A stretch of DNA of 64,000 nucleotides, from NCBI GenBank assembly GCA_963771175.1, contig CAVYSY010000046.1, positions 192,001 through 256,000 on the forward strand, in the 5' to 3' direction. Source of the stretch: an uncultured delta proteobacterium (lineage in GTDB: Bacteria > Myxococcota > Myxococcia > Myxococcales > Myxococcaceae). Position 1 is the stretch's first letter; every line of letters begins with the position of its first letter. The translations under genes were made by a program, and so were the position numbers. The notes beneath the pieces are model-generated. The model searched no databases and was not told where the DNA came from. It saw only the letters and a program-made list of their open reading frames with translations. This document shows, piece after piece, positions 1 through 54,752 of the stretch.

Positions 1-1433
1 GCTCGATGCGGAAGCCGCGAATCTTCACCTGATGGTCGCGCCGGCCCTGGAACTCAATGGCGCCGTCGGGAAGCAGGCGGACGATGTCACCCGTCTTGTA
101 GAGGCGGGCATCAGGGTTGGGGCTGAAGGGGTGGGGGATGAAGCGCTCGGAGGTGAGCGCGGACTGGTTGAGGTAGCCACGGCCCAGGCCCTCGCCACCG
201 AGGTAGAGCTCACCAGGGACACCGACGGGGACGGGCTGGAGGTTCTCGTCGAGGACGAAGGCGGTGGTGTTGGAGAGGGGGCGGCCGATGGGAACGGTTT
301 GGCCTTCAGCGGGAGGATGGGAGACGAGGTGCCAGGTGCTGAAGGTGGTGTTCTCGGTGGGGCCGTAGACGTGGAGGAGGCGAGCGGGAGGGCCGTGCTG
401 GAGGACGGAGCGAACGGCGCCGGGGTCGACGAACTCGCCACCGAAGAGGACGGAGGAGAGGGAGGAGAAGCCGGAGGGGGACTGCTGCGCCACCTGGTTG
501 AAGAGGGCGGTGGTGAGGAAGAGGGCGGAGATGGACTCCTGGCGCAGCAGTGAGGCGAAGAGAGCGGGCGAGAGGGAGACGTCGCGGGGGAAGCCGACGA
601 GCAGGGCGCCATTGAGCAGCGCGCCCCAGATTTCGAAGGTGGCCGCGTCGAAGGAGGCGTTGGACACCTGGGCCACTCTGTCGGCGGGAGTCAGGTGGAT
701 GTACTTGGTGTCACGCACCAGGCGGACGACGCCCCGGTGGGGAATGGCGATGCCCTTGGGCTGGCCAGTGGAGCCCGAGGTGTAGATGGCGTAGGCCAGG
801 TGGGAGGGCGTGGTGCTGGTGGCCGGAGCGTGGGTGGGGTGCTGGGCGATGGCTCCAGAGTCGGAGTCGGAGTCCAGGCACAGCACGCGAACGCCGTCGG
901 GCAGCTGGAGCCCGTCGGAGAGCGCCCGGGTCGTCAACAGCAGGGGCGCGCTGGCGTCCCGGAGCATGAAGGAGAGGCGCTCGCGGGGGTAGGAGGTGTC
1001 GAGGGGGAGGTAGGCGCCGCCCGCCTTGAGGCAGGCGAGCATGGAGAGGATGAGGGAGGGGGAGCGCTCGAGGTAGAGGCCGACGAGGGTGTCGGGGCCG
1101 ACGCCGAGCGACTGCAGGTGCCAGGCGAGCTGGTTGGCGCGCGACTCGAGCTGGGCATAGGTGAGGGACTCCTCACCGAAGCGCAGGGCGAGGGCCTCGG
1201 GGGTGGCGCGGGCCTGAGCGGAGAAGAGCTCGTGGATGCAGCGCTCTCGCGGGTAGTCGGTGGCCGTCTGGTTCCAGTCCACCAACAACTGCTGCCGCTC
1301 CGCCTCCGTCAGCAGGGGCAGCGCGGTGATGGCCGTGTCGGGCTGGCGCGCGGCCTCGACGAGCAGCGTCTGGAAGTGGCCCAGCATCCGCTCGATGGTG
1401 CTCGCGTCGAACAGGTCCGTGTCGTACTCCAGC
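1..1433 (-). repeat. Copy 3 (truncated by the window edge) of a ~1.7 kb C-end/A-domain repeat
   Basis: Nearly identical by eye to the matching parts of 3138-4855 and 6328-8045; the same antisense ORFs recur in all three copies. Confidence 0.9.
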
Positions 1434-2728
1434 TCGCCGACGAGGCCCGCGGGCGTCTCCTCCATCGACATCAGCAGGTCGAACTTCGAGGTGCCGGTCT
1501 CGACAGGCAACGCCGTGATGGAGAGCCCTTCGAGCACGGCCGACGAGGTCGCTGACTCCTGAAGGGAGAACATCACCTGGAAGAGCGGGTTGTGGCTGAG
1601 GTTGCGCTCGGGATGAAGCGCCTCGACGACCAGCTCGAAGGGGACATCCTGGTGGGCATAAGCCCCCAGTGCCACCTCACGCACCCGCTCGACGAGCTGC
1701 CGGAAGGTCGGCGCGCCGGAGAGGTCCGTGCGCATGACGAGCGTGTTGACGAAGAAGCCGATGAGTCCTTCGAGCTCGGCGCGGTTGCGGTTGGCGATGG
1801 GCGTGCCGACGCTGATGTCCTTCTGCCCGCTGTAGCGGCCAAGGAAGGCCTTGAAGGCAGTCAGCACCGTCATGAAGAGCGTGGTGCCCTCCTCACGGCT
1901 CAGTTGCCGCAGCGCGCTGACCGTCTCGGATGGGATGGTGAAGCGCTTCGACGTCCCCACGTGCCGCTGCACCGCGGGGCGCGGTCGATCCGTGGGCAGC
2001 TCCAGAACCGGAGGCGCCCCGGAGAGCTGCTTCTTCCAGTAATCGAGCTGCTCGCGCAACACGTCGCCCCTCATCCACTCGTTCTGCCAGAGCGCGAAGT
2101 CGGCGTACTGGAGCTTGAGCGGCCGTAGGTTGGGCTCGATGCCCAGCCGCATGGCGCTGTAGTAGGCCCCCAGCTCGAGGAAGAAGACGGACATGGACCA
2201 GCCGTCGGAGACGATGTGGTGCATCGTCAGCAGCAGGACGTGATCCTCCTCCGCGGCTCGCAGCAGGGTGGCGCGCACCAGCGGGGCCCGGCCCAGGTCG
2301 AACGGCCGTCGAGACTCCTCGCCCGACAGCTCGCGGATTCGCTGCTCCCGCTCATTGGCGGGAAGTTGGCTCAGATCGACGAGGTTCAGCTCCAGCGGCA
2401 GCTCCGGCGCGATCACCTGGACGGACTCGTCCTTGAGCGTGGCGAAACTGGTGCGCAGGGACTCGTGCCGCTGCATGAGCTTCCGCAGGGAGATTCTCAG
2501 CGCCTGCTCATCCAGAGGACCCTGGAGGCGGACGAAGACGGGCACGTTGTACAGGGCCAGTCCTGGCTCCAACCGATCGAGGAACCACAGCCTTCGCTGC
2601 GCGAAGGACAGAGGAACCTGGTTGCCTCGGTCGGTGCGCGGCAGGAGCGCCTGTTGGGAGGGCGTCTCCTTCTTGGCTGCGGAGGCACGGCCTTTGGCCT
2701 TCAGGATGCGATCCGAAAACTTGCTCAT
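1..2728 (-). CDS. NRPS-2, N-terminal part: C domain and A domain (Ile-type code); runs off the left edge
   Basis: ATG at 2728 (MSKFSDRILKAKG...LSFAQRRLWFL). C motif HHIVSDGWS; A motifs YTSGSTGQPKG, YGPTENT, GRRDHQVKIRGFRIE. The start codon is in frame with the last codons at the window edge; absent from the ORF track because there is no stop. Confidence 0.93.
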   Translation of the reverse strand, partial: MSKFSDRILKAKGRASAAKKETPSQQALLPRTDRGNQVPLSFAQRRLWFLDRLEPGLALYNVPVFVRLQGPLDEQALRISLRKLMQRHESLRTSFATLKDESVQVIAPELPLELNLVDLSQLPANEREQRIRELSGEESRRPFDLGRAPLVRATLLRAAEEDHVLLLTMHHIVSDGWSMSVFFLELGAYYSAMRLGIEPNLRPLKLQYADFALWQNEWMRGDVLREQLDYWKKQLSGAPPVLELPTDRPRPAVQRHVGTSKRFTIPSETVSALRQLSREEGTTLFMTVLTAFKAFLGRYSGQKDISVGTPIANRNRAELEGLIGFFVNTLVMRTDLSGAPTFRQLVERVREVALGAYAHQDVPFELVVEALHPERNLSHNPLFQVMFSLQESATSSAVLEGLSITALPVETGTSKFDLLMSMEETPAGLVGELEYDTDLFDASTIERMLGHFQTLLVEAARQPDTAITALPLLTEAERQQLLVDWNQTATDYPRERCIHELFSAQARATPEALALRFGEESLTYAQLESRANQLAWHLQSLGVGPDTLVGLYLERSPSLILSMLACLKAGGAYLPLDTSYPRERLSFMLRDASAPLLLTTRALSDGLQLPDGVRVLCLDSDSDSGAIAQHPTHAPATSTTPSHLAYAIYTSGSTGQPKGIAIPHRGVVRLVRDTKYIHLTPADRVAQVSNASFDAATFEIWGALLNGALLVGFPRDVSLSPALFASLLRQESISALFLTTALFNQVAQQSPSGFSSLSSVLFGGEFVDPGAVRSVLQHGPPARLLHVYGPTENTTFSTWHLVSHPPAEGQTVPIGRPLSNTTAFVLDENLQPVPVGVPGELYLGGEGLGRGYLNQSALTSERFIPHPFSPNPDARLYKTGDIVRLLPDGAIEFQGRRDHQVKIRGFRIE

Positions 2729-2822
2729 GGATGAAAATCTCGTTGTTCAAGCAGGAGGCCCGCAGGTGCCTGGGGCCTCCGAATCCTGTGTTCTTGGGGC
2801 GAGCTCTCGCGAAACAGGAGGC

Positions 2823-13837
<11,015 letters not shown>

Positions 13838-13910
13838 ATAGACTTAACTCTTTTAATGAGGACAAGCAGGAAGTCAACAAGCTCCGAGGATCTCTCTTGG
13901 GAATCGGAGC

Positions 13911-15188
13911 GTGCCTCGGACTGCCCAGGGAGCTCCCATCCTCGCGGTATTGAAACATCGTGACTTCGCGCTCATCTGGTCGGGCCAGCTCGTCTCCGGC
14001 CTGGGGGACTGGCTGCGGAACATGGCGCTGCTGTACTGGGTGTTCTCCGTCACCGGGGGTGAGTCGCCCCTGGCCACGGCGGCCATCACGGTAGCGACCA
14101 CGGCCCCGGCGCTCCTGCTGGGCCTGACGGCGGGCACCCTGGCAGACCGATGGGAGCGGCGTCGAGTCCTCATCTTCTGCGACGCCACGCGCTGCGTGCT
14201 GAGCCTGCTGCAGTTGGTGGCCGTGGCGAAACAGAGCCTGCCCCTGGCGTACACGGTGGCCTTCTGCTCGAGCGCGGTGGAGCAGTTGTACGATCCAGCT
14301 CGCGTCGCGCTGATCCGCACGACGGTGCCTCGCGAGGACCTGGTGGCAGCCAGTTCCCTGCGGCAGACCACGACGAGCGCCATCATGATCCTGGGAATGG
14401 CGCTCGGCACCGGCATCTACTTCGTGCTGGGGCCGTGGGTGAGCTTTGCCCTCGACGCGGCATCTTTCTTCGTGGCGATGCTGATCAACCTGGCGATCCG
14501 CACCCGGTGCGTGAGCACCAGCGCGCGAGCCGTCTCCTCGGTATGGAGGGAGGCACGAGAGGGGCTGGAGTACGTGCGCGGCAGCCTCTTCGTCCGCAGC
14601 ATGCTGGTGCTCGGGGCCATGGCCATGGCGGCCTCTGGCTTGATCGAGGTGGTGCAGATCTACCTGGTCACCCGGGAGCTGGGGCTGCCGGAGGATCGCC
14701 TGGCGTGGCTGGGCACGGCGCTGGGCGTGTCGATGTTCGCCGGTTTCGCGGTCGCCGGCTTCTTCCATCGCCGGCTGCGGTTGGAGTGGCTTCCGGGCCT
14801 GGGGCTGGGAGTCTGTGGCGTGGGCGTGATGCTGATGGCCATGGCCCCATCGCTGCTGGTGGCCATCGTGGGCATGGTGCTGGTGGGCCTGGGCAACGTG
14901 CTGCTCAACGTGGGGCTGGGACCGCTCATGCAGACGCATGTCGAGATGGGGCTGCTGGGGCGGGTGATGGGGGTCTTCCGCTCCGTGAGCACGGCCAGCA
15001 TGTTGTTGGGGGCCAGCAGTGCGGGCTACCTGATTGCCTATGCGAACACGCGGCAGGTCACTGCCGCCGCCGGTGTGCTGCTGGTGCTGGCGGCACTCCT
15101 CGCTGGACGCCGGCTGGCTCGCGCGGTCGTCACGCTGCGGGCCGAGCACCCCGAGGAGCACGTGCTACCCACCGCCACTGTGAAGTGA
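13911..15188 (+). CDS. MFS transporter (DHA3/macrolide-efflux-like), likely the cluster exporter
   Basis: About 12 hydrophobic segments; RDFALIWSGQLVSGLGDW and motif A GTLADRWERRRVL; divergent from the NRPS. Confidence 0.88.
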   Translation: MPRTAQGAPILAVLKHRDFALIWSGQLVSGLGDWLRNMALLYWVFSVTGGESPLATAAITVATTAPALLLGLTAGTLADRWERRRVLIFCDATRCVLSLLQLVAVAKQSLPLAYTVAFCSSAVEQLYDPARVALIRTTVPREDLVAASSLRQTTTSAIMILGMALGTGIYFVLGPWVSFALDAASFFVAMLINLAIRTRCVSTSARAVSSVWREAREGLEYVRGSLFVRSMLVLGAMAMAASGLIEVVQIYLVTRELGLPEDRLAWLGTALGVSMFAGFAVAGFFHRRLRLEWLPGLGLGVCGVGVMLMAMAPSLLVAIVGMVLVGLGNVLLNVGLGPLMQTHVEMGLLGRVMGVFRSVSTASMLLGASSAGYLIAYANTRQVTAAAGVLLVLAALLAGRRLARAVVTLRAEHPEEHVLPTATVK

Positions 15189-15194: not shown

Positions 15195-17894
15195 ATGTCG
15201 AGTCTCGGTGTGTCCGGTGAGCGGGAGCGGGAGCCGGCCCGCGTGCATCCGATACGTGTCGGAGCCCCGGGGGTGGCCGTGCTGGCCCTCTGGCTGGTGG
15301 GACTCTCCGCGCAGGCGCAGGAGACGGCCCCCGTCGAGCAGCGTCAGCTCCAGGCTCTTCAGGTGGAGAAGGGCCCGGTGCTGGACGGCGTGCTCGATGA
15401 CGAGGTCTGGAAGCGCGCCTCCTTTATCCGGGATTTTCTGCAGAAGGAGCCCGAGCAGGGCACGCCCGCTTCGCTGCGTACGGAGGTGGCCTTCGTCTAT
15501 GACGCGGACGCCCTCTACGTGGGCGCGCGCATGTTCAGTGTCTCTTCCGAGGACATCGAGACGGTGATGACCCGGCGTGACGAGAGTGGCTCCGCCGAGC
15601 GGTTCATCATCTCGCTGGACACCTACCGGGACCGACGCACCGCCTACAGCTTCGCCGTCACCGCCGCGGGCGTGCGGGTGGATTGGTACCACCCGGATGA
15701 CCACGAGTACGTCCGCGACCTTTCCTTCAACCCCGTCTGGGAAGCCCGCACCACCCAGGTTTCCGACGGGTGGATCGCCGAGCTGCGCATTCCCTTCTCG
15801 CAGCTGCGCTTCGACGCCGCCAACGAGCAGGTGTGGGGTCTCAACATCAACCGCTTCATCCCCCGCCGCAACGAGGACGACTTCTGGGTGGTGGTACCGC
15901 GCGATGTCACCGGCTGGTCCTCGCACTTCGGCGAGCTCTCCGGCATCCGCGGCGTGGCTCCCTCGCACCGCGTCGAGCTGGTGCCCTATGTGGCGGGAGA
16001 CCTGCAAGTGAGCTCGGGCGCGAACCCGCGTGCCGGGACGCCCTTCGAGAACCAGCGCCCGTACTCAGGCCGCGTGGGTCTGGACGGCAAGGTGGGCCTG
16101 GGGCCCAACCTCAACCTGGACCTCACGGTGAACCCGGACTTCGGGCAGGTCGACGCGGATCCAGCCCAGGTGAATCTCACGGACTTCGAGACCATCGTCG
16201 ACGAGCGCCGTCCCTTCTTCACCGAGGGCAGCCAGCTCTTCAACAACAACAACACCAACAACAATGCGCCGGCGTACTTCTACTCACGGCGTATCGGCGC
16301 CGCGCCACGGCTCAGGGCGAGCGCTGACTTCGTCGAGCCTCCGGGGGCCAGTCCCATCTGGGGCGCGGCGAAGCTCACCGGGCGGTTGTCCTCGGGCCTG
16401 TCCCTGGGTGCACTGGGCGCCTTCACCGGCGAGGGGTCCGCGGACACCTATGACTTCGCGACCCAGGAGCAGGGCCGGGTGAAGTTGGACTCGCGCACCG
16501 GCTACGGCGTGCTGCGTGCGCAGCAGGAACTGGGCAAGGGCTCGACGGTAGGTGCCACCCTCACCACGGTGTATCGGGACATTGGCGAGGGGGAGGGGCG
16601 CACGTTGGAGCTGACCCGTGAGGCCTATACGGGTGGCGCGGACTTCCGGCTGCGACTGCTCGGTGGCGAGTACATCGTCTCCGGTTACGCGGGTGGCAGC
16701 CTGGTGCGCGGGGACCCGGCGGCGATCACTCGCCTGCAGCGCTCCAGCGCCCGCTACTTCCAGCGGCCGGATCAGACGTACGTCCAGCTGGATCCCCAAG
16801 CCACCTCGATGTCCGGTTACGCGCTGGGGGCGAAGGTGGTCCGCCAGAGTGGCGAGCACTGGCTGTGGAACAGCAGCATCGGAGTCGAGTCCCCAGGCTT
16901 CGAGCTCAACGACCTGGGCCGGCTCGGCACCACGGATGACATCGACGTCAACCTGGGCCTCACCTACCGGGAGACGAACCCGGGCCCGCTGCTGCGTGGA
17001 TACAACCTGAGTCTGCTGGGCTACGGCAATTGGAACCACGGCGGGGTGCGGACGGTGAACCAGTTCGTGCTCTCCAATGCGGTCACCTTCCTCAACTTCT
17101 GGGAAGCCAGCCTGGCGCTCACCTATCTGCCGCGTGCATTCTCGGACTCGCTCACCCGCGGCGGGCCGCTGATGCAGACGCCGCAGGGATTGGAGGCCGA
17201 GCTCACCCTGAACAACAACTCCTCGGGCACCCAGCTCTGGAACGTGGACGCCCTGGGGTGGACGTACGAGGACGGCAGCCGTGGCGCCATCTTGACGGGG
17301 GCGCTCACCGTGCAGCCCTTCCGCAACCTGAGATTGTCGCTCGAGCCCGTTGCCTCGCTCTACACGGAAGCGCGCCAATACATGGCCACGCTGGGGGAGG
17401 GGAGCGCGGAGACGTACGGCAAGCGCTACGTCTTCGGCACGGTGCTGCGGCGCGAGTTGGCGCTGCGGCTGCGCGCCAACCTCTTCCTCACCCCGGACCT
17501 GAGTCTCGAGGCCTACGCCGAGCCCTTCGCCTCCAGCGGTGTCTACAGCGAGCTGGGCGAGCTGGCCCGGGCACGTGGGCGGCTCCTGCGCAACTACGGT
17601 GAGGACGGCACGTCCATCTCGCGGCTCGAGGACGGCAGCTGGGAGGTGATGGACGGCGAGCGCTCGTTCCTGCTGGACGATCAGGACTTCAACGTGCGCT
17701 CGTTCCGCGCCAACGTGGTGTTGCGCTGGGAATGGCGTCCGGGCAGCACCCTCTTCCTGGTGTGGCAACAGGACCGCTCCGCGAACGAGCTCCTGGGCAG
17801 TGCGCTGGCGCCTCGTGCCCTGGGCGATGCACTGCTCAGCCCGGGAGGCCACACCTTCGCCGTCAAGCTGACGTGGTGGTTCCCCGCGGGCTGA
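15195..17894 (+). CDS. Secreted/outer-membrane protein, CBM9-like plus DUF5916 family
   Basis: Signal peptide ending AQA; PVLDGVLDDEVW, GWIAELRIPFSQLRF, LTVNPDFGQVDADP, ERRPFFTEG, FYSRRIG; C-terminal KLTWWF beta-signal. Confidence 0.75.
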   Translation: MSSLGVSGEREREPARVHPIRVGAPGVAVLALWLVGLSAQAQETAPVEQRQLQALQVEKGPVLDGVLDDEVWKRASFIRDFLQKEPEQGTPASLRTEVAFVYDADALYVGARMFSVSSEDIETVMTRRDESGSAERFIISLDTYRDRRTAYSFAVTAAGVRVDWYHPDDHEYVRDLSFNPVWEARTTQVSDGWIAELRIPFSQLRFDAANEQVWGLNINRFIPRRNEDDFWVVVPRDVTGWSSHFGELSGIRGVAPSHRVELVPYVAGDLQVSSGANPRAGTPFENQRPYSGRVGLDGKVGLGPNLNLDLTVNPDFGQVDADPAQVNLTDFETIVDERRPFFTEGSQLFNNNNTNNNAPAYFYSRRIGAAPRLRASADFVEPPGASPIWGAAKLTGRLSSGLSLGALGAFTGEGSADTYDFATQEQGRVKLDSRTGYGVLRAQQELGKGSTVGATLTTVYRDIGEGEGRTLELTREAYTGGADFRLRLLGGEYIVSGYAGGSLVRGDPAAITRLQRSSARYFQRPDQTYVQLDPQATSMSGYALGAKVVRQSGEHWLWNSSIGVESPGFELNDLGRLGTTDDIDVNLGLTYRETNPGPLLRGYNLSLLGYGNWNHGGVRTVNQFVLSNAVTFLNFWEASLALTYLPRAFSDSLTRGGPLMQTPQGLEAELTLNNNSSGTQLWNVDALGWTYEDGSRGAILTGALTVQPFRNLRLSLEPVASLYTEARQYMATLGEGSAETYGKRYVFGTVLRRELALRLRANLFLTPDLSLEAYAEPFASSGVYSELGELARARGRLLRNYGEDGTSISRLEDGSWEVMDGERSFLLDDQDFNVRSFRANVVLRWEWRPGSTLFLVWQQDRSANELLGSALAPRALGDALLSPGGHTFAVKLTWWFPAG

Positions 17895-22162: not shown

Positions 22163-24495
22163 TCACGCCGTGTCGTTGGCGGTGGAGGCCGCGGCCTTCT
22201 CCTGGCGCTCGAGCTTGCGCAGGTGCCGCTGCTCGCGCCGGCGCTGGCGGGCGCGCTGCAGGGCGTCCATCCCTCGGATGAGCGGGTCCCTCCAGGCCCC
22301 ATGCTTCTTGCGGGGGAGCTCGCGGTCGTTGCGGCCCCACTTCTCGCGCGCCACCAGCTTCGCGTCGTAGCCGAAGAGGGCCTCGTAGAAGGACTCCCAG
22401 TGCTCGCCGCTGTACTTGCACACGAACTGCCGCAGCGCGCCCTCCTCGAGCCCGCGCAGTCGCATGGAGCGCAGCATCTGCTCGAGGTCATCGACGAAGG
22501 GCTTGCGCTCGGCGGCCACCCGGCGGTCCACCAGCACGTAGAAGGCACTGGCGACGACGAGCGAGCCCCCCAGCACGGCCAGCGCCAGATCGTGCAGCCC
22601 GAAGTGGACGAGCGCCCAGCCCGCGCCGCCCAGCAGCAGCAGCCATACCCCCCAGGTGAGCAGCGGGGCCTGGAAGACGAGCTGCCGGAAGCGCAGGAAG
22701 AGCGCCCCCTTCTGGAAGAGCCCCCGCACGAGGAAGGAAGCCATCCACGTGACCACCCCCGCCGCCCCCGACACCACCGCCGGCAGCCGGCCCACCCACC
22801 AGCCCAGCCCAGCCGTGGTCAGCACCGCCAGCAGGAAGAAACCCAGCACCAGCCAGCGCCGCCGCTTCGCCCAGCGCGCGCCGGTGTAGCCCTGCGCGCA
22901 GCCCTCGAGGAAGTTGGCGTGCTCCTCCCGCGGGGTGAAGGCCGCCGTCCCGTCGATGCCCAGGTAGCTCTGCAGCTCGTGGATGACCTCGGACATGTCC
23001 TGGTAGCGCTCCTCGGGGCGCTTCTCCATCATCCGCATCACCGACGGCCGACAGCTGGCGGGGCACGCGCTTGACGCACTCGTCCGGCGGCACCGGCCGC
23101 TGCGTCATGTGCAGGGCGAGCATCGCCACCGAGGTCTCCGCCTCGAAAGGGGGGCGTCCGGTGAGCAGGTGGTAGAAGGTGCAGCCCAGCGAGTAGAGGT
23201 CCGCGCGCGCGTCCACCTCCGAGGAGTTCTCCACCTGCTCCGGCGCCATGTAGGCCGGCGTCCCGAGGACGGCCTCCTCCGCGATGGAGGAGTCGCCGGG
23301 GCGAGCCTCGCGGCTATCGGGGGATGTCACCTGGGCGCGCAACACGCGCCGGGTGTAGCTCGCGGCGTGCTTCACCAGGCCCAGGTCCGCCACCTTCACC
23401 ACGCCGTTGCGGTTGAGCAGCAGGTTGTCCGGCTTGATGTCCCGGTGCACCATGCCCCGTGCGTGGGCGAACTTCAGCCCGCGCGCCGCCTGGAGGATGT
23501 AGCCGGCGGCCACCTCCGGATCCACGCCGGCCCTGCCGCTGCACCAGCGAGGCGAGGCTCCCGTCATCCACGTACTCCATGCTGAAGAAGTGGACCTGCC
23601 CCTCCGAGCCGCAGTCGTGGATTTGCGCGATGTTGTGGTGGATGAGCTGTGCCGCGGCGAGCGCCTCCTGGGTGAAGCGGAAGACGAACTGTGGGTCCCC
23701 CGCGAGGCTGGGCCGCAGCACCTTCACCGCCACGTTGCGGTCCAGCGACAGCTGGCGGGCCAGCCACACCGTGCCCATGGCGCCGCCTCCAATCTTCTTG
23801 ATCAGCTGGTAGCCCCCCAGCGTCGTGCCCTCGGCGAGGGACACCGCGTCCTGGCGCCAGGATTCGGCGGGGAGGTCCCAGACGGGGCGGGCCGCCTCGG
23901 CCGTGGGCTCCTTCGGCGGTTCCTCCTTGGGAGGCGGCTCCTTCTTGAGGGGCGGGGCCGCTTTGGGGCGGGGGGGACTGGGGACGGGGCTCACCTCGGG
24001 GTCCGCGGCCGCTGCGCTCACGGACGAGCGCGTGCGGGCCCGAGGGGGTTGCCCGGGACGAGCCACCACCCGGGTGGACTCGGAGGACGAGTCCGGCAGT
24101 GGCACGAGGACGGTGCGCTCCTCCTTCGGCTCCTGGGAGTTGGCCCTGGGCTGCGAGCGGGGGGTGGGGGCAAAGGGCTTCGCCAGCTCGCTGGCGGTCC
24201 GCGTCTTCGGAGTGCCGGGGCTGGCCGCGCGGGCGGGGACGCCCTCCGGGGTGGGCGTGGGGCTCGGGCGGGAGGGCGCGACGGTGGGGACCCTGTCCGT
24301 GGGGCGCTCTGGTGGGTGGGGCAGGCTGCGCGCGGTACGCCCCGGCGGAGGCTGGGGCTGCGGGGTGACGAGGGTCCGCGCCTCCTCGGCGGAGGCTGGC
24401 GCGACATCGCCAGGGGACTGCTGACACTTGGAACAGGGCTCTCCTGACGCGTCGAGCAGGTGCCCTTTCAGGCAACGGGTAGACTCCAGGGCCAT
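22163..24495 (-). CDS. Membrane Ser/Thr protein kinase with Cys-rich N-terminus, Pro-rich linker and C-terminal TM helices; frameshifts ~23535, ~23045
   Basis: IGGGAMGTVW, VAVKVL, HRDIKPDN, DLGLVK, GTPAYMAPE, DLYSLG spread over ORFs 23314-24717, 22488-23567 and 22163-23041. Confidence 0.85.
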
Positions 24496-24781
24496 CTCCA
24501 CGCCTCGGCACCACCATCCTGGCGGAGGTGGACAAAAGTTCGGGGATACTCCTTCGCGGCGCCCTGCATCTACCGTACCCGGGCCCGGTGTGAGCAACCC
24601 AGGTGTGCGATGGCCATTCTCGCCTGAAGTGGAGTGGATGTTTCGTGCCGTTGGCGCGAGTCCGAGGGCGGCCGCGGTGGGCCTGGAGAACGCGCAAGAA
24701 GTAACGCTTCGCGGCATTCACGCGCAGTCTCTGCGCGATTCTCCTGGCGTTCTGGTTTCCGTGATTGTAGAAAAATACAGA

Positions 24782-26488: not shown

Positions 26489-27247
26489 ATGGAGTTTGCT
26501 CTAAATGACATTACCGTCAGCGTGTACGCGCCCGCGCTCGTAGGCGATGATGGGCGCCCGCTTGCTATAGTTCATGGAGTGGAGCGTGCGTTTCCTGGAT
26601 TGCGCTTGCGGTGGACAACCTCGAAGAAGGACGACCTCATCGCAGTACCCCACCGCGATGCGTGGGTCGCGTCCGACAGGACAGACGGAGGGTTTCCGTT
26701 CCTTTGCAACGATGACGACGCCCACCCTGTGACGATTTTTGGGCTCGAAAACCCGAACGGTCTTTCCGCAGAAGGCCCGCCGCATTTTGAAGTGCATGCG
26801 TCGCTGCCAGCGCATGCAGCCGGCCTTGCGGCGGCAGCGGATGTGCTGGCGGCCGTAGGGGAAGGCGCACGTGCGTACTGGGGGCACGCCACGCCCTCCA
26901 ACGCGACCGTGGAGATTTCGCGGCAGACGACCGATCCGGTGCGTAAGCCAGGAGTTCCGCCACGAGGGCTGCCAGCGCTCAGGTTCCCAGACTACATCCT
27001 CGCGCCCGAGATTCCGCATAACCTCGGCTGGCTGAACTACTGGTCGGATGCTGCCGCACGGGCCATCGGCTTTCCGGACCCCGCCCGCGACGTGGAACTG
27101 CTCGCGCGCTCACGGCGTACCGCGACGGGCGGGTGGGTTGTTCAGCTCACCGATGCGCCGCTCGACCTGGACAACCCCGCCCACCTGGACGCGCTTAAAC
27201 GGGCCTACGAGCGCTTCCCGGAGATCGGCGGGCGAGCCACCCCTTGA
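26489..27247 (+). CDS. DUF5953 family protein (putative immunity partner)
   Basis: VYAPALVGDDGRPLA, WGHATP, PEIPHNLGWLNYWS, VQLTDAPLDLDNPAHLDALKRAYERFPEIGGR. Confidence 0.75.
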   Translation: MEFALNDITVSVYAPALVGDDGRPLAIVHGVERAFPGLRLRWTTSKKDDLIAVPHRDAWVASDRTDGGFPFLCNDDDAHPVTIFGLENPNGLSAEGPPHFEVHASLPAHAAGLAAAADVLAAVGEGARAYWGHATPSNATVEISRQTTDPVRKPGVPPRGLPALRFPDYILAPEIPHNLGWLNYWSDAAARAIGFPDPARDVELLARSRRTATGGWVVQLTDAPLDLDNPAHLDALKRAYERFPEIGGRATP

Positions 27248-27353
27248 GGCTCGGCGCGGCTCGCAGTGGCCATGCTCGAGGTTCCGCCTTCGGGCTCACC
27301 GGGAAGGTGACGTTCCCGAGGGTGGCGATGGAGCGAGAAAACCAGCTCGCGGC

Positions 27354-28247
27354 TCAGTAACGCGCCGTGAGGGTGAGCGCGCTGTAGCTGCTCCAGCCGT
27401 GCAGCATCACGTACCAGGTGCCAGGAGCCGGGGAGCTGAAGGTGCACACCTCGTAATTGCCCCCCACGTAGGGCCGGCAGTTGAACGAGGAGAAGGTCGG
27501 AGAGGAGCCGGACTTGACGTAGAGGTCCACATCCCCCGTCCCGCCACTCGTCTCGAAAGTCAGGCTGCTCACCCCCGCCGGGAGGGTGAGGGAGTAGTAC
27601 TTGCGCCCGTTCATGGTGTCGGCCAGGCCGCTGACCGGGGTGTTGTTCGCGAGGGGAGTGATGGGGAGCGCGTCGCAGAAGCCATTCACGTAGAAGGTGG
27701 TGGCCTGGGTGGTCGCGTAGCGGTCCGTGTAGAGATTGCAGCCGGCCAGCGTGGGGTGCGGGTAGAGCTGCGTGCTGACGACCACGTCGTATTGATTGCC
27801 ATAGACGGGGTAGCGGGGGCGCGGCCTCTTGCGGCCAGGTGCATTGGTCCACTTCAGGTAGAGATCCGGGTCCGGCAGCTGATCGCTCACGCCACTCATG
27901 TACAGCATGGTGAGGTAGGTCTGATTGACCTGGAAGCCTTCCGCGGAGCCGACATAGGCATTCATGCCGAAGAAGTCGGAGGGCTCTGTGTAGTCATACA
28001 TGGGGTTGCCATCGATCCCCATCATGCCGGTATCGGCCGCCTGGCTGGGATTGCCCACATGCATCACCAGCGCGCACCGGCGCATCCAGTTCAGCCGCTC
28101 CTCGGCCAGGTCCGCCGGCAGGCTGTCCGAATCACAGCGCTGCGCCAGGGCCTGCAGCTGCGCTCGAGCCATCGTGGGGAGCAATACCAGCCCCCCCACC
28201 AGCGCCACCGTGACTGTCATTTGTCGTCTCATGACCGCGCTCTCCAT
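27354..28247 (-). CDS. Secreted protein with C-terminal PPC (pre-peptidase) domain
   Basis: Signal peptide; SLTFETSGGTGDVDLYVK..CRPYVGGNYEVCTF..PGTWYVMLHG. Confidence 0.8.
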   Translation of the reverse strand: MESAVMRRQMTVTVALVGGLVLLPTMARAQLQALAQRCDSDSLPADLAEERLNWMRRCALVMHVGNPSQAADTGMMGIDGNPMYDYTEPSDFFGMNAYVGSAEGFQVNQTYLTMLYMSGVSDQLPDPDLYLKWTNAPGRKRPRPRYPVYGNQYDVVVSTQLYPHPTLAGCNLYTDRYATTQATTFYVNGFCDALPITPLANNTPVSGLADTMNGRKYYSLTLPAGVSSLTFETSGGTGDVDLYVKSGSSPTFSSFNCRPYVGGNYEVCTFSSPAPGTWYVMLHGWSSYSALTLTARY

Positions 28248-28276
28248 TCCGGGTGCCGTGACAAGCGAAGCGAGGC

Positions 28277-28846
28277 TCAGGGCAGCAACGGCTCCCCCGG
28301 GTCATCCGGGACCACCTGGCCCAGATTGAGGGCCACCACGAGCCGCTTGCGGAGGGCCTCCGCCTCGGGGGTGCCCTCGATGGGAGCCAGCTCGCGCCGC
28401 AGGCGCAGGACGTCCTCCTGCGACAGCCGGCCCCGGGCCAGCACCTCCTCCAGCAGCGCCTGGGATTGCTGGAGGGCCGCCTGGTGCTCGGAGGCGAGCA
28501 TCAGGCGCGGCTTGGAGGCCGGGTCGGCCCCAGCCTCGGATTGTCGCGCCACCAGCAGGGAGGCCACCCGCGAGGACAGGGCCTCCAACTGCTGCTCGGA
28601 CGGCCGGGCGTCTCCGCCTCGTCCCGCGCCGGTGCATCCGCGCTGGCCAAGGGCGGCATCCCCTCCCGCGGTGCGCCCACGGGCGGCCGGGAAGCCCGGC
28701 AGCTCGGAGACGGCCCGCTCCAGGCCCTCGAGCCGCGCTTCCTGCGCAAGCAGCCGGCTGCGTTGCGCCCCCAGCAGCCCCGTGCCCACCACGGCCCAGG
28801 CGGCCGCGGCCCCCCATCCCATGCGTGACAGAGTGAGCCAGCGCAT
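28277..28846 (-). CDS. Hypothetical membrane-anchored helical protein
   Basis: ATG overlaps the upstream TGA; N-terminal hydrophobic stretch; helical C-terminus (EHQAALQQSQALLEEVL..LRKRLVVALN). Confidence 0.6.
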   Translation of the reverse strand: MRWLTLSRMGWGAAAAWAVVGTGLLGAQRSRLLAQEARLEGLERAVSELPGFPAARGRTAGGDAALGQRGCTGAGRGGDARPSEQQLEALSSRVASLLVARQSEAGADPASKPRLMLASEHQAALQQSQALLEEVLARGRLSQEDVLRLRRELAPIEGTPEAEALRKRLVVALNLGQVVPDDPGEPLLP

Positions 28847-29229
28847 CAGAAGGACGAGTGCTGGGAGCCGTTGTTGAGGATGAGCGTGGTACAGGTCCCG
28901 GTGGTGTCCCACGTGAGGTAGAAGTAGCCCTCGTGAAGCATGACGCGGGGCCACACGTTGGCCACCGTGGCACTGGGCACACGAGACGACCCCGGTCGTC
29001 GGCCACCAAGCCTGGAAATATCTCGACCCGGACGCGTACTCGATGAAGCTCACGTACGTGGCGGCATCCGAGTGGTTCCGGAAGGACTGGAAGTTGCCAA
29101 AGCACGAGCCCGAACCATCGGCCGCCTTGTTACAGCCGGCCGACGTCAAGCCTGCCCGGCCTCCGCGTTCATCGAAACCAGCAGGCCCACCACGGCCAGC
29201 GCTCCTCCGCACTTCAGCACGCGCGACAT
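28846..29229 (-). CDS. Small secreted Cys-containing hypothetical protein; frameshifts ~29148, ~28978
   Basis: Signal MSRVLKCGGALAVVGLLVSMNAEA, then GCNKAADGSGSCFGNFQSFRN..., then WPRVMLHEGYFYLTWDTTGTCTTLILNNGSQHSSF*; GAGGAG RBS. Confidence 0.6.
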
Positions 29230-30557: not shown

Positions 30558-32751
<2,194 letters not shown>

Positions 32752-32820
32752 CACACCCTCCAGGGCAGGGCGTACCCTATCGTTTGGAATCCACGCCGGG
32801 GGCCGCGTATTTTGCCCCAC

Positions 32821-33618
32821 ATGACCACCGCGCTGCCCGAGTCCCGACTGACGACGCCCGTGCTGGAGGTGGAGGGGCTGGAGAAGGCCTACGGCGAGGT
32901 GCGGGCTGTTCAGGGGCTGACGTTCCAGGTGGCCCCGGGCGAGGTGCTCGGGCTGGTCGGGCCCAACGGGGCGGGGAAGACGTCCACGCTGCGCTGCCTG
33001 GCGGGCATCCTGCCGCCCTCGACCGGGCGCGTGGTGGTGGCCGGGAATGACTTGTCGCTCGCTCCGGTGGAGGCCAAGCGGGCCCTCGCGTTCCTGCCCG
33101 ATGAGCCGCGCCTCTTCGAGTACCTCACCGTCTGGGAGCACCTGAACTTCGTGGCGCGGCTGTACGGGGTGGCGGACTGGGAGGAGCGGGGGAGGGCGCT
33201 GCTGGACGAGATGGAGCTCTCCGGCAAGCAGAAGGCCCTGCCCGGGGAGCTGTCGCGCGGGATGAAGCAGAAGCTGTCCATCGCGTGCGGCTTCCTGCAC
33301 TCCCCGAGGCTCATCCTCCTGGACGAGCCGCTCACCGGGTTGGACCCCCTCGGCATCCGGAGGATGAAGGCCTCGCTGCGCCAGCGCGCGGAAGCGGGGA
33401 CGGCGCTGGTGCTCTCCTCGCACCTGCTGCCGCTGGTGGAGGAGCTGTGCCACCGCATCCTCGTCATCGCCGGGGGGCGGGTGGTGGCACTGGGGACGCT
33501 CGCGGACATTCGCGCGCAGCTCAGTGGACCCGAGGGCGCGGCCGCGTCCCTGGAGGAGCTCTTCATCCGCATCACCAGCGCGGCGCCCGAGGCCGCACCC
33601 GAGCGGGTGGCCCCGTGA
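32821..33618 (+). CDS. ABC transporter ATP-binding protein
   Basis: GPNGAGKT, LSRGMKQK, LDEPLTGLD, SSH. Confidence 0.92.
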   Translation: MTTALPESRLTTPVLEVEGLEKAYGEVRAVQGLTFQVAPGEVLGLVGPNGAGKTSTLRCLAGILPPSTGRVVVAGNDLSLAPVEAKRALAFLPDEPRLFEYLTVWEHLNFVARLYGVADWEERGRALLDEMELSGKQKALPGELSRGMKQKLSIACGFLHSPRLILLDEPLTGLDPLGIRRMKASLRQRAEAGTALVLSSHLLPLVEELCHRILVIAGGRVVALGTLADIRAQLSGPEGAAASLEELFIRITSAAPEAAPERVAP

Positions 33619-39400: not shown

Positions 39401-39480
39401 GGGCGCGCAGCCTACCACGACCGTACAGGTGCGCAGAAGAAGGCTTGCGTCGCCCCCGGCGGTCCATTAGGCGCGGACCC

Positions 39481-41198
39481 GTGCGCCTCCTCCTGATCCC
39501 CCTGGTCAACCTGCTGTTGCTGTTGCGCGCCCTGCTGGGCCTGCCATTCCGACTGCTGGGGGCGCGCGGCCGTCCCTCCTACATCCGCTTCAGGCTGGCG
39601 GGAGATCCCCCCTACCGGGAGCGGAGCCGCCGGCCCCGCTTGAGCCTGCTGGGAGGCCCTGGGCGTCCCGAGCCGGCCACGGTGACCTCGCTGGAGCGCT
39701 TCCGGGAGTCGCTCGCGCTGCTGGCGAAGGACCCGAAGGTGAAGGGCATCCTCGTGGAGCTGGAGGGGCTGGAGGTGCCGCCAGCGAAGCGGGAGGTGCT
39801 GGTGAAGCTGCTGGAGGACTTCCGGGCGGCGGGCAAGCGGGTGGTGGCGTGGGCGGTGAGCGCGGACAACCTGGGGTACCAGGTGATGTGCGCGGCGGAC
39901 GAGGTGCTGCTGGCTCCGGCGGGGCGGCTGGAGCTGGTGGGCTACGCCGCGGAGGCCACCGCGCTCGGCGAGGGCCTGGGCCGGCTGGGGATCCAGGCGC
40001 ACTTCATCCGGCGGGGACCGTACAAGACGGCGCCGGAGCTCTTCACGCACCCGCATGTGTCGGACATCCAGCGGCAGACGCTGGAGGGCTTCCTGGACGA
40101 GCGGTACGACGAGCTGGTGGGCACCGTGGCGAAGGGGCGCAAGCGCACGCCGGAGGAGGTGCGGGCGTGGATCGACGCGGGCCCGTACAGCGCGAAGCGC
40201 GCGGCGGCCGAGGGGCTGATCGACGGGCTGTGCAGCGAGGCGGACCTGCCCGCGCGGCTGGGGATGAAGGACGGCGAGGCGGACGAGGAAGAGGAGGAGG
40301 GGCTGGACCCGATGCCGCTGTACCTGGCGCGGCTGCCGTGGCCGCCGATGAAGTGGCGCCCGCTGCGTCCGAGACCCCGGCTGGCGGTGGTGCCCCTGTC
40401 GGGGATGATCGTCCCCGGGAAGGGCGGGGCGGGGGGACCGGGACCGGAGATGGCGGGCTCGGAGGTGGCGGTGAAGGCGCTGCGTGCGGCGGGGAGGGAT
40501 CGGCGCTCGAAGGCGGTGCTGCTGTACGTGGCGAGCCCGGGAGGCTCGGCGCTGGCCTCGGAACTCATCCTGGAGGCGGTGCAGCGGGTGGCGAAGAAGA
40601 AGCCGGTGATCGCCTTCGTGGACCGGGTGGCGGCGAGCGGTGGCTACATGGCGGCGCTGGGGGCGAAGGAGATCTGGGCCACGCCGCACGCGGTGGTGGG
40701 CTCCATCGGGGTCTTCGCGGGGAAGTTCGACGCCTCGGGACTGCTGGAGAAGCTGGGGATCCACCGCACGATGATCGTGCGGGGGAGAACGCGGGCATCT
40801 TCTCGCCCACGCGGGGCTTCACCGAGCACGAGCGGGCGTCGATGGAGGCGGAGGTGGAGGAGACGTACCAGACGTTCCTCGAGTTCGTGGCGAAGGCGCG
40901 AAGCCGGACGAAGGAGGAGATCCACGCGCTGGCGGAGGGGCGGGTGTACAGCGGCACGCGAGCGCTGGGGGTGGGGCTGGTGGACCGGACGGGGGGCTTC
41001 GAGGAGGCGTGCCGGCACGCGATGGGGCTGGCGAAGGTGCCGGCGGAGCAGCGCTTCGATCTGCACATTCACGGAGGGGTGGATCGGCGCTTCTCCCTGC
41101 TGAAGCTGTTGTTGGGAGGCTCACGCGCGGGGCTGTATGCCTTGTGCCCGACGGCCTGGAGCCTGCTGGGGTTCAGGGGAGGGGAGCGTTTCGAGTAA
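39481..41198 (+). CDS. sppA: Signal peptide peptidase SppA (67K, S49); frameshift ~40785
   Basis: GPYKTAPE, SPGGSALASE, AASGGY, VGSIGV, AEGRVYSG. Confidence 0.88.
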
Positions 41199-47574: not shown

Positions 47575-48358
47575 ATGGCCTACGAGAACATCCGGCTGGA
47601 GACCGAGGACGCGATCGCCATCCTCACCATCGATCGCCCCAAGGCGCTCAACGCGCTCAACAGCAAGACGCTGCAGGAGCTGGAGTCGGCGCTGGACTCG
47701 CTGCCCACCACGGCTGCGCGCGCTCATCGTCACCGGCGGCGGCGAGAAGGCCTTCGTCGCCGGCGCGGACATCGCCGAGATGGCGTCGCATCACCTCGGC
47801 GCAGGCGCGCGAGTTCGCCGCCGCTGGGCCACCGCACGCTTCGCCACGCTCGAGCAGCTGCCCATCCCGACCATCGCCGCGGTGAACGGCTTCGCGCTCG
47901 GCGGCGGCTGCGAGCTGGCCCTCGCCTGCGATCTCATCTACGCCTCGGAGAAGGCGAAGCTCGGCCTGCCCGAGGTGAGCCTCGGGCGTCATCCCCGGCT
48001 TCGGCGGCACGCAGCGGCTCACCCGCGCTGGTGGGCAAGATGCGCGCGAAGGAGCTCATCTTCACCGGCGAGCGCCTGGACGCGGCCAAGGCCAAGGAGA
48101 TTGGCCTGGTGCTCGACGTGCTCCCGGCGGACAAGCTGCTGGCCGCACTGCAAGGCGGTGGCGGCGAAGATCCTCAAGAACGGCCCGCTGGCGATCTCCC
48201 AGGCCAAGCGGGTCATCGAGTTCGGCGCGGACCAGGATCTCCGGGCGGCCAACGAGCTGGAGCGCCAGGGCTTCGCGGTGCTCTTCGGCTCCGAGGACCA
48301 GAAGGAGGGCATGAAGGCCTTCCTGGAGAAGCGTCCGGCGGGCTTCACCGGCAAGTAG
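47575..48358 (+). CDS. Enoyl-CoA hydratase (crotonase); frameshifted
   Basis: [41 protein letters not shown]. Confidence 0.9.
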
Positions 48359-48500
48359 GCCGGGGCAGGAGAGGGCCGGCGAGCGCCTGTCCGCTAATGG
48401 GCGCGGCAACCGACGCTTGCCCGCCCCTCCTGCAATCGCTGTTCCCGGGGCCTCCGCCCCGTACTATGTACCTCTGCGCCCTTACCCCACCAGGAGTGCC

Positions 48501-49646
<1,146 letters not shown>

Positions 49647-49659
49647 GGAGTCGACGCAT

Positions 49660-50140
49660 ATGAAGCGTTCCCTGATCGCGGTGGTGGTGCTTCTCGGGTC
49701 GGGCCTGGCGTTCGCGCAGGGCTCGGCCAAGGGGTCGGCGGGCAAGGAGACAGGGTCCGAGGCGACCGTCCCCGCGCAGGAGAAGAAGAAGGCGGAGCCG
49801 GCCCGGCCCCAGCCGCCGAACGTGTCGCAGATGCCCTTCACCCCGGACTCCATCCGCGAGGTGATGACGTACTACTCGCGCGACATCCAGGAGTGCTACG
49901 AGGAGATCCTCGCGACGAAGGGCAGCAAGGTGGAGGAGGGCCGCATCATGACGTCCTTCACCATCACGCCGGACGGCTTCGTGAGGAACGCCAAGGTGGT
50001 CAAGGCGGGCACGACTGCTGAAGAACGCACGGCTGAACGAGTGCGTGGTGAACGTGCTCTCCAGCATCACGTTCCCGCAGCCGCCGGACGGGCGCGAGTA
50101 CCCCATCGAGTATCCGTTCAACCTCAAGGCCATCAAGTAG
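49660..50140 (+). CDS. Secreted protein with TonB-C-like (AgmX/PglI C-terminal) domain; frameshift ~50020
   Basis: Signal peptide; IQECYE..EGRIMTSFTITPDG..CVVNVLSSITFPQP..IEYPFNL. Confidence 0.65.
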
Positions 50141-50151
50141 GACGCCCCCCC

Positions 50152-51303: not shown

Positions 51304-51525
51304 GCGCCCGCCCCCTCGGGTGCCTGGGCAGCAGCCACGGGACTCCGCGCGTTTCGTGCGCCGAGGCAATGGCGCGGGGATTCATCGGGCATCACCTTTG
51401 AATCCTCGGAGGGTAGGGGAGTGTGGGTGCTTTCCTGCCTGCCGGACGAGGGCTCTAGAGGACCGGGGGGTGTCCGATCCGCCAGTGAGCATTATCAGGA
51501 CTATGAACAAGTACCGCGTGCTCGC

Positions 51526-51670
51526 TTGACTGCCGGTATAACCGGTGTCTAGGGTGCGCGGCTTCGAACCAACCCCATTGTGGGGAAGGCTCGCGCTCCA
51601 CTCGTAGCTCCCCGCGAGTGGATGCCGTCAACAACCGGGGGCAGAAGTACCAGTTAGGACTCTCAATCTC
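51526..51670 (+). promoter_or_regulatory. Putative rpsA promoter and structured 5' leader
   Basis: TTGACT-18nt-TAGGGT, then hairpins at 51573-51585 and 51597-51622. Confidence 0.45.
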
Positions 51671-53382
<1,712 letters not shown>

Positions 53383-53409
53383 GTCTGCCTCCCTCATAAA
53401 GGGTACGCG

Positions 53410-53449
53410 ACGGCCGGGTTCCCGAGAGGGGGCCCGGCCGTTTGCTTTT
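53410..53449 (+). terminator. Intrinsic terminator after rpsA
   Basis: ACGGCCGGGTTCCC-GAGA-GGGGGCCCGGCCGT followed by TTGCTTTT. Confidence 0.85.
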
Positions 53450-54734: not shown

Positions 54735-54752
54735 TCCAACGCGGGACGAACA

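Follow-up and report, generated by a model that had tools for sequence, protein, structure and literature searches.

Two questions are raised by an NRPS locus of an uncultured member of the Myxococcaceae: what peptide does it build, and how does the finished chain leave an assembly line that carries no thioesterase (TE)? The locus lies at the left edge of the window, the whole stretch of 64,000 nucleotides of contig C46 (genome G000) that was analysed. The answer favoured here, tentatively and as a whole at somewhat less than an even chance, is that a two-gene, six-module TE-less NRPS builds the linear peptide N-methyl-Arg-Ile-Ile-Ile-Ile-Asp, which is likely released at an altered E domain and likely exported by an adjacent MFS protein and DUF5916 barrel.

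Layout and integrity of the assembly line

A sequence-only reading of the window had described a four-module NRPS without E domains, its release domain lying beyond the left edge. The four C-A-T modules are indeed found at 1-13747 on the minus strand, and no E domain lies inside the window, but the line extends 8.2 kb farther left, and its six modules are divided between two genes, C*-A-MT-T-(C-A-T)2 and (C-A-T)3-E, with a fourth Ile code, an Asp code and an E-type domain in addition (Table 1). Core motifs of six A, six T and five intact C domains are distributed over both genes; the modules are colinear and the cluster spans about 26 kb. The probable start codon of NRPS1 is a TTG preceded by AGGGAG. 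Left of the window, module 5 is C-A(DAFFLGVTFK)-T and shows a frame change some 2.5 kb from the edge; module 6 is C-A(DLTKVGHIGK, Asp)-T(GGDSV), followed by the E-type domain (HHLATDG ... DNHGRE) and a stop codon. The next gene is convergent and encodes a kinase/AAA/GAF/histidine kinase. Because the E domain is followed by no TE, reductase or terminal C, the line lacks the release domain that was expected.

Table 1. Features of the NRPS locus (window positions unless a contig is given)
Feature	Position	Strand	Basis
NRPS1, three modules, C*-A(Arg-like)-MT-T-C-A(Ile)-T-C-A(Ile)-T	2823..13747	-	Domain annotation and orthologue ORFs
C1, degenerate starter condensation domain	12383..13696	-	HQMICDPG vs HHxxxDG; motif ~13283-13300
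A1, code DIENVGAITK	10916..12313	-	Code extraction and closest solved pocket
SAM methyltransferase within A1	9700..10915 (approximate boundaries)	-	LEIGCGTG and NSVLQHFP motifs
Module 2, C-A(DAFFLGVTFK)-T	6106..9234	-	Annotation and code
Module 3, C-A(DAFFLGVTFK)-T, frame change ~3857	2919..6042	-	Annotation and code
NRPS2 5' part, module 4 C-A(DAFFLGVTFK), ATG at 2728	1..2728	-	Annotation and code
NRPS2 remainder, outside window	G000:C46:192000 down to 183781		T4, modules 5 and 6, E-type domain, stop
T(GGDS)-E end of line	G000:C46:183781-185400		Terminal carrier and E-type domain
MFS exporter (MFS_1/MFS_3), divergent from NRPS1	13911..15188	+	MFS_1 E 4e-33
DUF5916 protein	15195..17894	+	Starts 6 bp after MFS stop

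An MFS orthologue (73-86% identical) adjoins NRPS1 in 6 of the 201 genomes searched. The six modules occupy two unbroken ORFs in G133 (on a single contig), G197 and G223, and are spread over a contig break in G212; G004 has a seven-module variant ending in a TE. A contig scan with the MFS alignment yielded L020 as the one close record, the five others being distant MFS genes of Paenibacillus (27-31%); the metagenome loci among the matches listed, at least 79, are generic C domains at no more than 44% identity. Records of NRPS1 exist for many named Myxococcus genomes; the orthologues bear only generic names.

The cores of A2-A5 are 97-100% identical to one another within G000, a pattern that fits gene conversion among Ile domains. 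In the domain tree, C2-C6 cluster across genomes according to their position in the line, which shows that the Ile modules did not arise by duplication during assembly; with module-specific C domains and the same count in orthologues, the notion that the module count is an assembly artefact was rejected.

Three frame changes fall within 22 kb of this copy: two that split NRPS1 (~9385 and ~3857) and the one in NRPS2. They are most likely assembly errors, to judge by the orthologues and by unrelated genes. NRPS1 is one unbroken ORF in G133, G197, G212, G223 and G004. At each break the reading frame shifts cleanly, and both flanks remain 72-79% identical to the orthologue. Other loci of the same assembly (11 were taken for comparison, and one with repeated matches was dropped) show 4 frame changes in 3 of 10 loci, over 13.4 kb, and the IMPDH and kinase genes of the window are likewise split. 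The cluster in G000 might instead be a decaying pseudogene with real frameshifts and a lost TauD gene, as the density of breaks and the absence of a TauD orthologue from the G000 genome would suggest; this would concern the present copy only and not the family. It is made distinctly improbable by the equal frequency of breaks in unrelated genes, the preserved identity on both sides of each break, and the short branches of the G000 C and E domains in the tree. That the frameshifts are real, which was to have counted against the product prediction, thus looks unlikely.

Predicted residues and product

Specificity codes were taken from alignment columns anchored on motifs rather than on an alignment to GrsA, with the final K assumed; they are identical to those previously read by eye, DIENVGAITK for A1 and DAFFLGVTFK for A2-A4. 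Module 5 repeats the latter code, for a total of four Ile-coded modules (2-5). The proposal of at least three aliphatic residues therefore holds for the Ile codes but was incomplete, since an Asp module follows the four.

The specificity of ApnA A1 is for Arg/Tyr. Its pocket (PDB 4D4G) is the best solved-structure match to that of A1 (E 1.1e-33; next best, 1.9e-25), and A1 agrees with the Arg consensus code (PMC12283262) at 8 of 10 positions, differing at 2. Both comparisons support the basic first residue that had been proposed: Arg is predicted as the most likely substrate, with Lys, Orn or homoArg possible. The code DIENVGAITK itself is absent from the literature searched. Published codes identical to DAFFLGVTFK activate Ile with some Val (PMC2533009 Table 1; PMC13122637), in agreement with its assignment to Ile. 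In G133, G197 and G212 the module 2 code is DAFFLGATFK, and the residue may consequently differ there. For module 6, Asp is predicted, with Asn possible: the near-identical DLTKVGHVGK is used for both (PMC12283262). Unlike the A1 code, DLTKVGH gave literature matches, none of them to a fitting compound. The likeness to ApnA is confined to a single domain, as is the code identity with the Ile domains of cyanopeptolin/suomilide; those pathways lead to cyclic or aeruginosin-type protease inhibitors and have other architectures.

The methyltransferase of module 1 is borne out by a Pfam Methyltransf_12 match (E 5.9e-10), and its LEIGCGTG and NSVLQHFP motifs are both conserved in the 5 orthologues examined; by these motifs it is a putative N-methyltransferase. 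C1 has the motif HQM[IV]CD in 6/6 orthologues, its catalytic His gone. In trees it falls among the internal C domains of its own cluster, apart from DCL and E; its placement outside the DCL type led to rejection of an iterative line in which C1 would be the DCL acceptor, and it probably only scaffolds A1. Interface (I) domains also occur at pathway starts (PMC10212144), and C1 resembles those that work with a beta-hydroxylase in being C-like, inactive and placed first in its NRPS. A TauD-family oxygenase gene is present in 4 of the 6 clusters, the degenerate C1 being retained in the 2 that lack it.

In the proposed pathway, A1 would load the basic residue (most likely Arg), whose amine would be methylated once or twice by the methyltransferase within A1; the domains are seen, the chemistry is conjectural. 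Modules 2-5 would add L-Ile (some Val), with substrates assigned from the identical published codes, and module 6 would add Asp (possibly Asn). The predicted product is a linear zwitterionic hexapeptide ([M+H]+ 756.50) in which four Ile residues form the core between a cationic head and an anionic tail. In the four TauD-bearing genomes one residue, most simply Asp6, would probably be beta-hydroxylated; G000 would yield the unhydroxylated form. The charged ends and Ile core hint at a likely surface action, as surfactant or self-assembling peptide.

These features uphold the earlier idea of an orphan amphiphilic product, whereas nothing speaks for a protease-inhibitor-like peptide: inhibitors of the leupeptin/antipain type are peptide aldehydes that need a terminal reductase and a C-terminal basic residue, and the present line lacks a reductase that could form an aldehyde warhead and has its basic residue at the N-terminus. 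The nearest designed peptides are Ile-rich amphiphiles such as Ac-I3K-NH2 (PMC6269506) and KI4K, which form beta-sheet fibres or tubes; like the predicted product they have charged ends and several consecutive Ile (three or four), but they are synthetic and capped. A natural counterpart to them was not found in the literature searched, nor was a compound matching the predicted product, in a body of literature that misses most subscription journals, the home of many myxobacterial compounds. The available portions of PMC12211065 and PMC10435759 do not single out the cluster. As far as this literature shows, the predicted N-methyl-Arg-Ile4-Asp peptide is undescribed. The cluster is small and colinear and NRPS1 occurs in many Myxococcus genomes, so that masses of 756.50, 772.49 (hydroxylated) and 738.49 (cyclic) can be searched for at once.

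The altered terminal domain and release of the chain

The terminal domain belongs to the E family: it sits inside the E clade with support 1.0, matches the E domains of TycA, GrsA (PDB 2XHG, 5ISW) and PvdL (9LCQ) at E 1e-125 to 6e-71, and retains the HHxxxD His and an intact upstream GGDS carrier motif. It departs from the canonical domains in having Asp at the position of Glu882/892 and Asn for the next Gly, in lacking a docking tail and in having nothing downstream. The resulting DNHGRE is found in 5/5 genomes, its Asp lying 138 residues past the His; the catalytic His-Glu spacing of TycA and GrsA is 139 (H743/E882 and H753/E892; PMC8905534). Of 124 xxHGRE motifs in 120 homologues, 114 have EG and only 2 have DN, both belonging to this NRPS family; DGHGRE accounts for 5 in other E domains. 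The Asp-Asn pair is not a general trait of Asp modules, an explanation rejected because 9/9 other Asp/Asn-coded A-T-E modules keep EG. The tail extends for at least 185 aa in 62 of 69 terminal E domains, with a T/SPSD motif in 50 of those 62, whereas the terminal E-type domain here stops at 169-172 aa, without TPSDF and its helix. The Glu-to-Asp change may leave epimerisation intact: DGHGRE occurs in other E domains, and the E892A substitution in GrsA lowers activity only ~6-fold (PMC8905534).

NRPS1 and NRPS2 contain no terminal TE, R or C release domain; only the G004 variant, the sole member without the Asp-E module, has one, a canonical TE (GWSMGG). This replacement is an association from one genome. 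The 17 TE (PF00975) matches of the G000 genome are all off contig C46. PF00144 proteins number 10-32 per genome (10 in G000); in G000 and G223 the contig that carries the cluster has none, and in G197 and G133 the nearest is ~170 kb and 370 kb distant, respectively. The genes downstream of the cassette differ from genome to genome.

From these comparisons, the product is likely freed by the altered terminal E-type domain itself, which would have drifted from pure epimerisation to off-loading by hydrolysis of the Asp thioester, leaving Asp6 L or D. The Asp side-chain carboxylate could plausibly assist through a cyclic anhydride. A bolder form of this proposal, that the domain is a new off-loading type (Glu-Gly to Asp-Asn, docking tail lost) acting without a thioesterase, and that MeArg-Ile4-Asp is a natural counterpart of the designed self-assembling Ile peptides, exported through the MFS protein and DUF5916 barrel as surface or matrix material, is in our estimate unlikely. 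Release by an E-type domain was not found demonstrated in the literature searched. If the altered E domain does release the peptide, the condensation superfamily gains a new function and the annotation of such clusters changes; the Asp-E ending without a TE and the TE ending in any case form a natural pair for studying release in TE-less bacterial NRPSs.

The main rival, somewhat unlikely, makes the same hexapeptide with a working epimerase (D-Asp) and an unlinked trans enzyme (a SurE-like PBP-type thioesterase, type II TE or alpha/beta hydrolase) that cyclises or hydrolyses it; were it true, the locus would be an ordinary new orphan peptide cluster. Surugamide, Ile-rich with one basic residue, resembles the product predicted here. 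In the surugamide system (PMC11012974), SurA/SurD are TE-less, SurD module 8 ends in E, as does the last module here, and the trans cyclase SurE is encoded in the cluster. The intact His and GGDS motifs fit this design, and the PF00144 and PF00975 proteins elsewhere in G000 are candidates. Against it, surE sits inside its own cluster and neither a PBP-type TE nor any other such gene lies within or close to the cassette of G000, G133, G197 or G223, despite their differing neighbours; the E motif is altered in all five genomes; and an N-methylated terminus is, by general chemistry, a poorer ring-closing nucleophile. The present line further differs in having no internal E or DCL, an N-methylated start, Asp-Asn for Glu-Gly, and a Gram-negative host with an MFS protein and outer-membrane barrel.

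Two other fates of the chain are less probable still. The rhabdopeptide/xenortide NRPSs and myxovalargin give linear, hydrophobic, N-methylated peptides from TE-less lines whose terminal C adds an amine, and by analogy the terminal domain might join the chain to agmatine, putrescine or phenethylamine as a C-terminal amide: HHxxxD His and Asp are kept, the epimerase-specific Glu is changed, and terminal condensation-family domains do release chains (PMC10510592). This is improbable for a domain nested in the E clade, with no decarboxylase or other amine-supply gene among the annotated flanking genes. The present line also differs from those NRPSs in being colinear and in having one methyltransferase only. 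Very improbable is a longer final product, with the hexapeptide passed to another NRPS/PKS or back to C1; terminal E domains usually pass their chain on to a DCL domain downstream, and each genome has many other NRPS genes, but the docking tail is missing, C1 is neither DCL-type nor in possession of its catalytic His, and no NRPS follows NRPS2 in G000, G133, G197 or G223. Siderophore lines of the albachelin/scabichelin type likewise end in E without a TE, release being proposed via the side chain of the last residue; here the last code is Asp-type rather than hydroxy-ornithine, the cassette has neither ornithine oxygenase nor TonB receptor, and there is a single possible chelating group.

Exporter and barrel

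The divergent MFS gene of the sequence-only reading is present (Table 1), and the cassette reaches past it to include the DUF5916 gene; scanning the 163 bp between the divergent MFS and NRPS1 genes for promoters gave no match. The DUF5916 protein has a signal-peptide-like N-terminus (by eye), a CBM9-like domain and a large outer-membrane beta-barrel; its structure model (pLDDT 91, pTM 0.87) finds CBM9 (1i82), MtrB (6r2q) and TonB-dependent barrels in Foldseek. Such a modelled fold led to its rejection as a releasing hydrolase. Orthologues (81-85%) stand behind the MFS gene in G133, G197, G212 and G223. The case for an NRPS-specific protein is weakened by relatives at 72-74% identity in 9 of 17 genus relatives without the cluster's MFS, and by the lack of a DUF5916 gene in the G004 cluster. 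The term DUF5916 is absent from the literature searched, and the family gains a testable candidate cargo. Two JGI proteins (E domain, 88%; DUF5916, 89%) indicate another close relative.

Layout, substrate codes and predicted product

The cluster operates as a colinear NRPS of two genes, NRPS1 (modules 1-3) and NRPS2 (modules 4-6), from which canonical termination is absent. In contig coordinates the window corresponds to G000:C46:192001-256000. The probable start codon of NRPS1 is a TTG with AGGGAG seven bases upstream. Past the left edge of the window, where the sequence-only reading had expected a release domain, none is present: NRPS2 stops a few residues beyond the fold of its terminal epimerase-type (E) domain and is followed by a convergent kinase/AAA/GAF/histidine kinase gene. 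None of the 17 thioesterase (TE) matches in this genome lies on the contig.

Features of the NRPS locus and of other genes noted in this analysis (C*, starter C domain with an altered motif)
Feature	Position	Strand	Content
NRPS line	window 13747 leftwards to contig position 183781, 8.2 kb beyond the left edge	-	from Pfam and translation
NRPS1 (gene 1)	window 13747 to stop at 2823	-	C*-A-MT-T-C-A-T-C-A-T
NRPS2 (gene 2)	window 2728 to contig position 183781	-	C-A-T-C-A-T-C-A-T-E
MFS exporter gene	163 bp from NRPS1		divergent from NRPS1
Kinase/AAA/GAF/histidine-kinase gene past the NRPS	G000:C46:178513-183759	+	split across frames
Ser/Thr kinase gene	window 22491-24717	-	reading-frame split
DUF5953 gene and overlapping 609-aa ORF	window 26489-28877	+	ORF without Pfam match; lower GC (0.64)
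IMPDH gene	window 31196-33453	-	reading-frame split
Peptidase S49 gene (signal peptide peptidase type)	window 39445-41103	+	two S49 stretches
Three large ORFs (502, 670, 842 aa)	window 48348-56045	-	no Pfam match; steady positive AT skew
CBASS-like defence locus of congener G004	L004:3009-10648		past the TE-ended cluster; NF041117 oligonucleotide cyclase above cut-off; SAVED-domain protein, AAA ATPase, helicase

Motif-anchored alignment yields the pocket codes DIENVGAITK (A1), DAFFLGVTFK (A2-A5) and DLTKVGHIGK (A6), the first four exactly as they had been read by eye. The A6 code is that of surfactin for Asp, and the near-identical DLTKVGHVGK is reported for Asp as well as for Asn. Among solved structures, ApnA A1, a domain with Arg/Tyr specificity, is the best match to the pocket region of A1. 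The A1 code agrees at 8 of 10 positions with the Arg consensus in the consulted part of PMC12283262, which also reports the near-identical DLTKVGHVGK for Asp and for Asn, and orthologues carry DIENIGA[IV]TK or DVENIGAITK; Arg is the predicted A1 substrate, with Lys, Orn or homoArg as alternatives. For cyanopeptolins, DAFFLGVTFK is described as a code for Ile that at times gives Val (PMC2533009); in suomilide-type peptides the residue is L-Ile or D-allo-Ile (PMC13122637). C2-C6 belong to neither the DCL nor the E clade, and the motif of T1-T5 is GGHS, so residues 1-5 should be L-configured. The product, as a backbone prediction alone, is probably MeArg-Ile4-Asp ([M+H]+ 756.498), and congeners are expected because module 2 has the code DAFFLGATFK in three genomes. 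The calculated [M+H]+ values of related forms are 772.493 (+O), 770.513 (dimethyl) and 738.487 (cyclic); predicted b ions lie at 171.124, 284.208, 397.292, 510.376 and 623.460, and Val variants would be 14 Da lighter.

Function is the weakest inferential step of this reading. Self-assembly is seen in synthetic peptides that have an Ile3 or Ile4 run between charged ends (PMC6269506), and by analogy the product could plausibly serve as a surfactant or matrix material. Of the protease-inhibitor-like product proposed earlier, the aldehyde type has become unlikely, there being no reductase. No matching compound emerged from a literature search that left most subscription journals outside its scope, nor from the parts consulted of PMC12211065 and PMC10435759, and the cluster is provisionally regarded as orphan and undescribed.

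Distribution and integrity of the cassette

A C1 query matched 6 of 401 genomes of the phylum, the source genome G000 included, at 62% identity or more (next best, 47%). The MFS query recovered the same six among 201 genomes, and the terminal E query recovered five among 208. Three carriers from another genus (G133, on one contig, G197 and G223) encode the full set of six modules in a pair of uninterrupted ORFs, each measuring 3650-3796 codons between stops; in a fourth, G212, a contig end cuts module 5 and the E domain is on a separate contig. The sixth, the congener G004, has seven modules (DVENIGAITK, DAFFLGGTFK, DALHLGCTFK, DAFFLGVTYK, DAFFLGVTFK, DAFFLGVTYK, DIWHFGQIDK) followed by a GWSMGG thioesterase. 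Its module 3 and 7 codes (loci L007/L008) are unassigned, and the stem of the latter is absent from the papers searched. NRPS1 relatives in the protein collection form three clusters of 24, 2 and 1 members with generic product names throughout; the 15 listed members of the largest are named Myxococcus fulvus, M. faecalis, M. guangdongensis and Myxococcus sp., and the remaining relatives are from M. landrumensis and Corallococcus terminator. The NRPS family is real and conserved, and the product predicted for it is unusual.

Cassette flanks vary among genomes, except for one lipoprotein-like gene common to three. The G000 MFS protein is 83-86% identical to those of the other genus as against 73% to that of G004, which suggests that the cassette is mobile. 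A DUF5916 gene lies behind the MFS gene in all five E-ended clusters (81-85%); its best G004 match reaches only 41%. The predicted fold (107-sequence alignment, pLDDT 91) comprises a CBM9-like domain and a large beta-barrel similar to those of MtrB and TonB-dependent receptors. The pairing of an exporter in the inner membrane with a barrel in the outer membrane suggests an export route. Against a dedicated role for DUF5916, 9 of 17 genus relatives have 72-74% homologues, and no NRPS was found in the 16-20 kb read around six of them. In those six loci (L115-L120) the homologue adjoins HPr kinase, RapZ or PTS genes, by eye; L117 has the PTS side alone and L120 the HPr kinase/RapZ side alone. A TauD-family oxygenase gene stands in front of the MFS gene in the four other-genus clusters; none was found in G000, a genome 82% complete and contiguous at the locus.

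Relative to the G223 proteins, the G000 reading frame shifts once at each of three sites: near window 9385, near window 3857 and 2.5 kb beyond the left edge. Identity is 72-79% on either side of each site. These shifts could signify that the G000 copy is dead, which we consider improbable. Eleven G000 loci were compared with proteins of relatives, and one was left out because its hits were repeated; among the other 10, 3 carried 4 frame changes in 13.4 kb, not below the NRPS rate of 3 in 22 kb; the splits of the IMPDH, Ser/Thr kinase and histidine-kinase genes are likewise consistent with an indel-rich assembly. Assembly error is the likely cause. Compared with one another, the A2-A5 domains of G000 show 97-100% identity, but only 73-80% to their counterparts of equal number in G223 and G133, and C2-C6 cluster in the tree by module position across genomes; on these sequence comparisons the four Ile modules are real, their A domains having been homogenised inside the genome.

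The altered terminal and starter domains

The last domain is an E domain by sequence and by tree, is preceded by a GGDS carrier and keeps HHLATDG. In the consulted part of PMC8905534 the catalytic pairs are 139 residues apart (TycA His743/Glu882, GrsA His753/Glu892). In 98 of 119 cases among homologues, xxHGRE begins 138-140 residues past the His; its first residue is therefore the catalytic Glu position. In 5/5 genomes the terminal domain has Asp there, followed by Asn in place of Gly. Among 124 xxHGRE motifs in 120 homologues, 114 are EG, 5 DG, 3 other and 2 DN, both of the last belonging to this NRPS family; all nine other Asp/Asn-coded E modules keep EG. The domain is also without the C-terminal docking tail that 62 of the 69 terminal E domains compared possess. 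The domain has neither a canonical E active site nor the features of a docking E.

The completed chain has to leave T6, and the altered E domain is the only release candidate travelling with the cassette. Hydrolytic release at this domain is our tentative choice, held at a little under an even chance; plausibly, the terminal Asp would use its side chain to attack the thioester that tethers it. That the one member without an Asp-E module has a TE fits release at the E domain, as one natural contrast. The main rival, a doubtful one, is a cyclase or hydrolase acting in trans, as the surugamide line is served (consulted part of PMC11012974); the PF00144 hydrolase that marks a SurE-type cluster was found neither in nor near the cassette in the four E-ended genomes searched. 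It is improbable that the chain is capped with an amine at release, and very improbable that this hexapeptide, ending on a domain devoid of docking tail, is handed to another assembly line.

C1 has HQM[IV]CD in all six genomes. The second His of HHxxxDG is catalytic (consulted parts of PMC10510592 and PMC10212144), so that in C1 the catalytic His is replaced by Gln. In the tree a long stem joins C1 to the internal C domains of the same cluster. C1 probably acts as a scaffold and may be an interface domain, a type that PMC10212144 places at pathway starts. Five terminal E domains elsewhere (proteins P0035, P0041, P0059, P0064 and P0070, two named Microcoleus) combine DGHGRE with a docking tail, and these natural Glu-to-Asp E domains could serve as controls.
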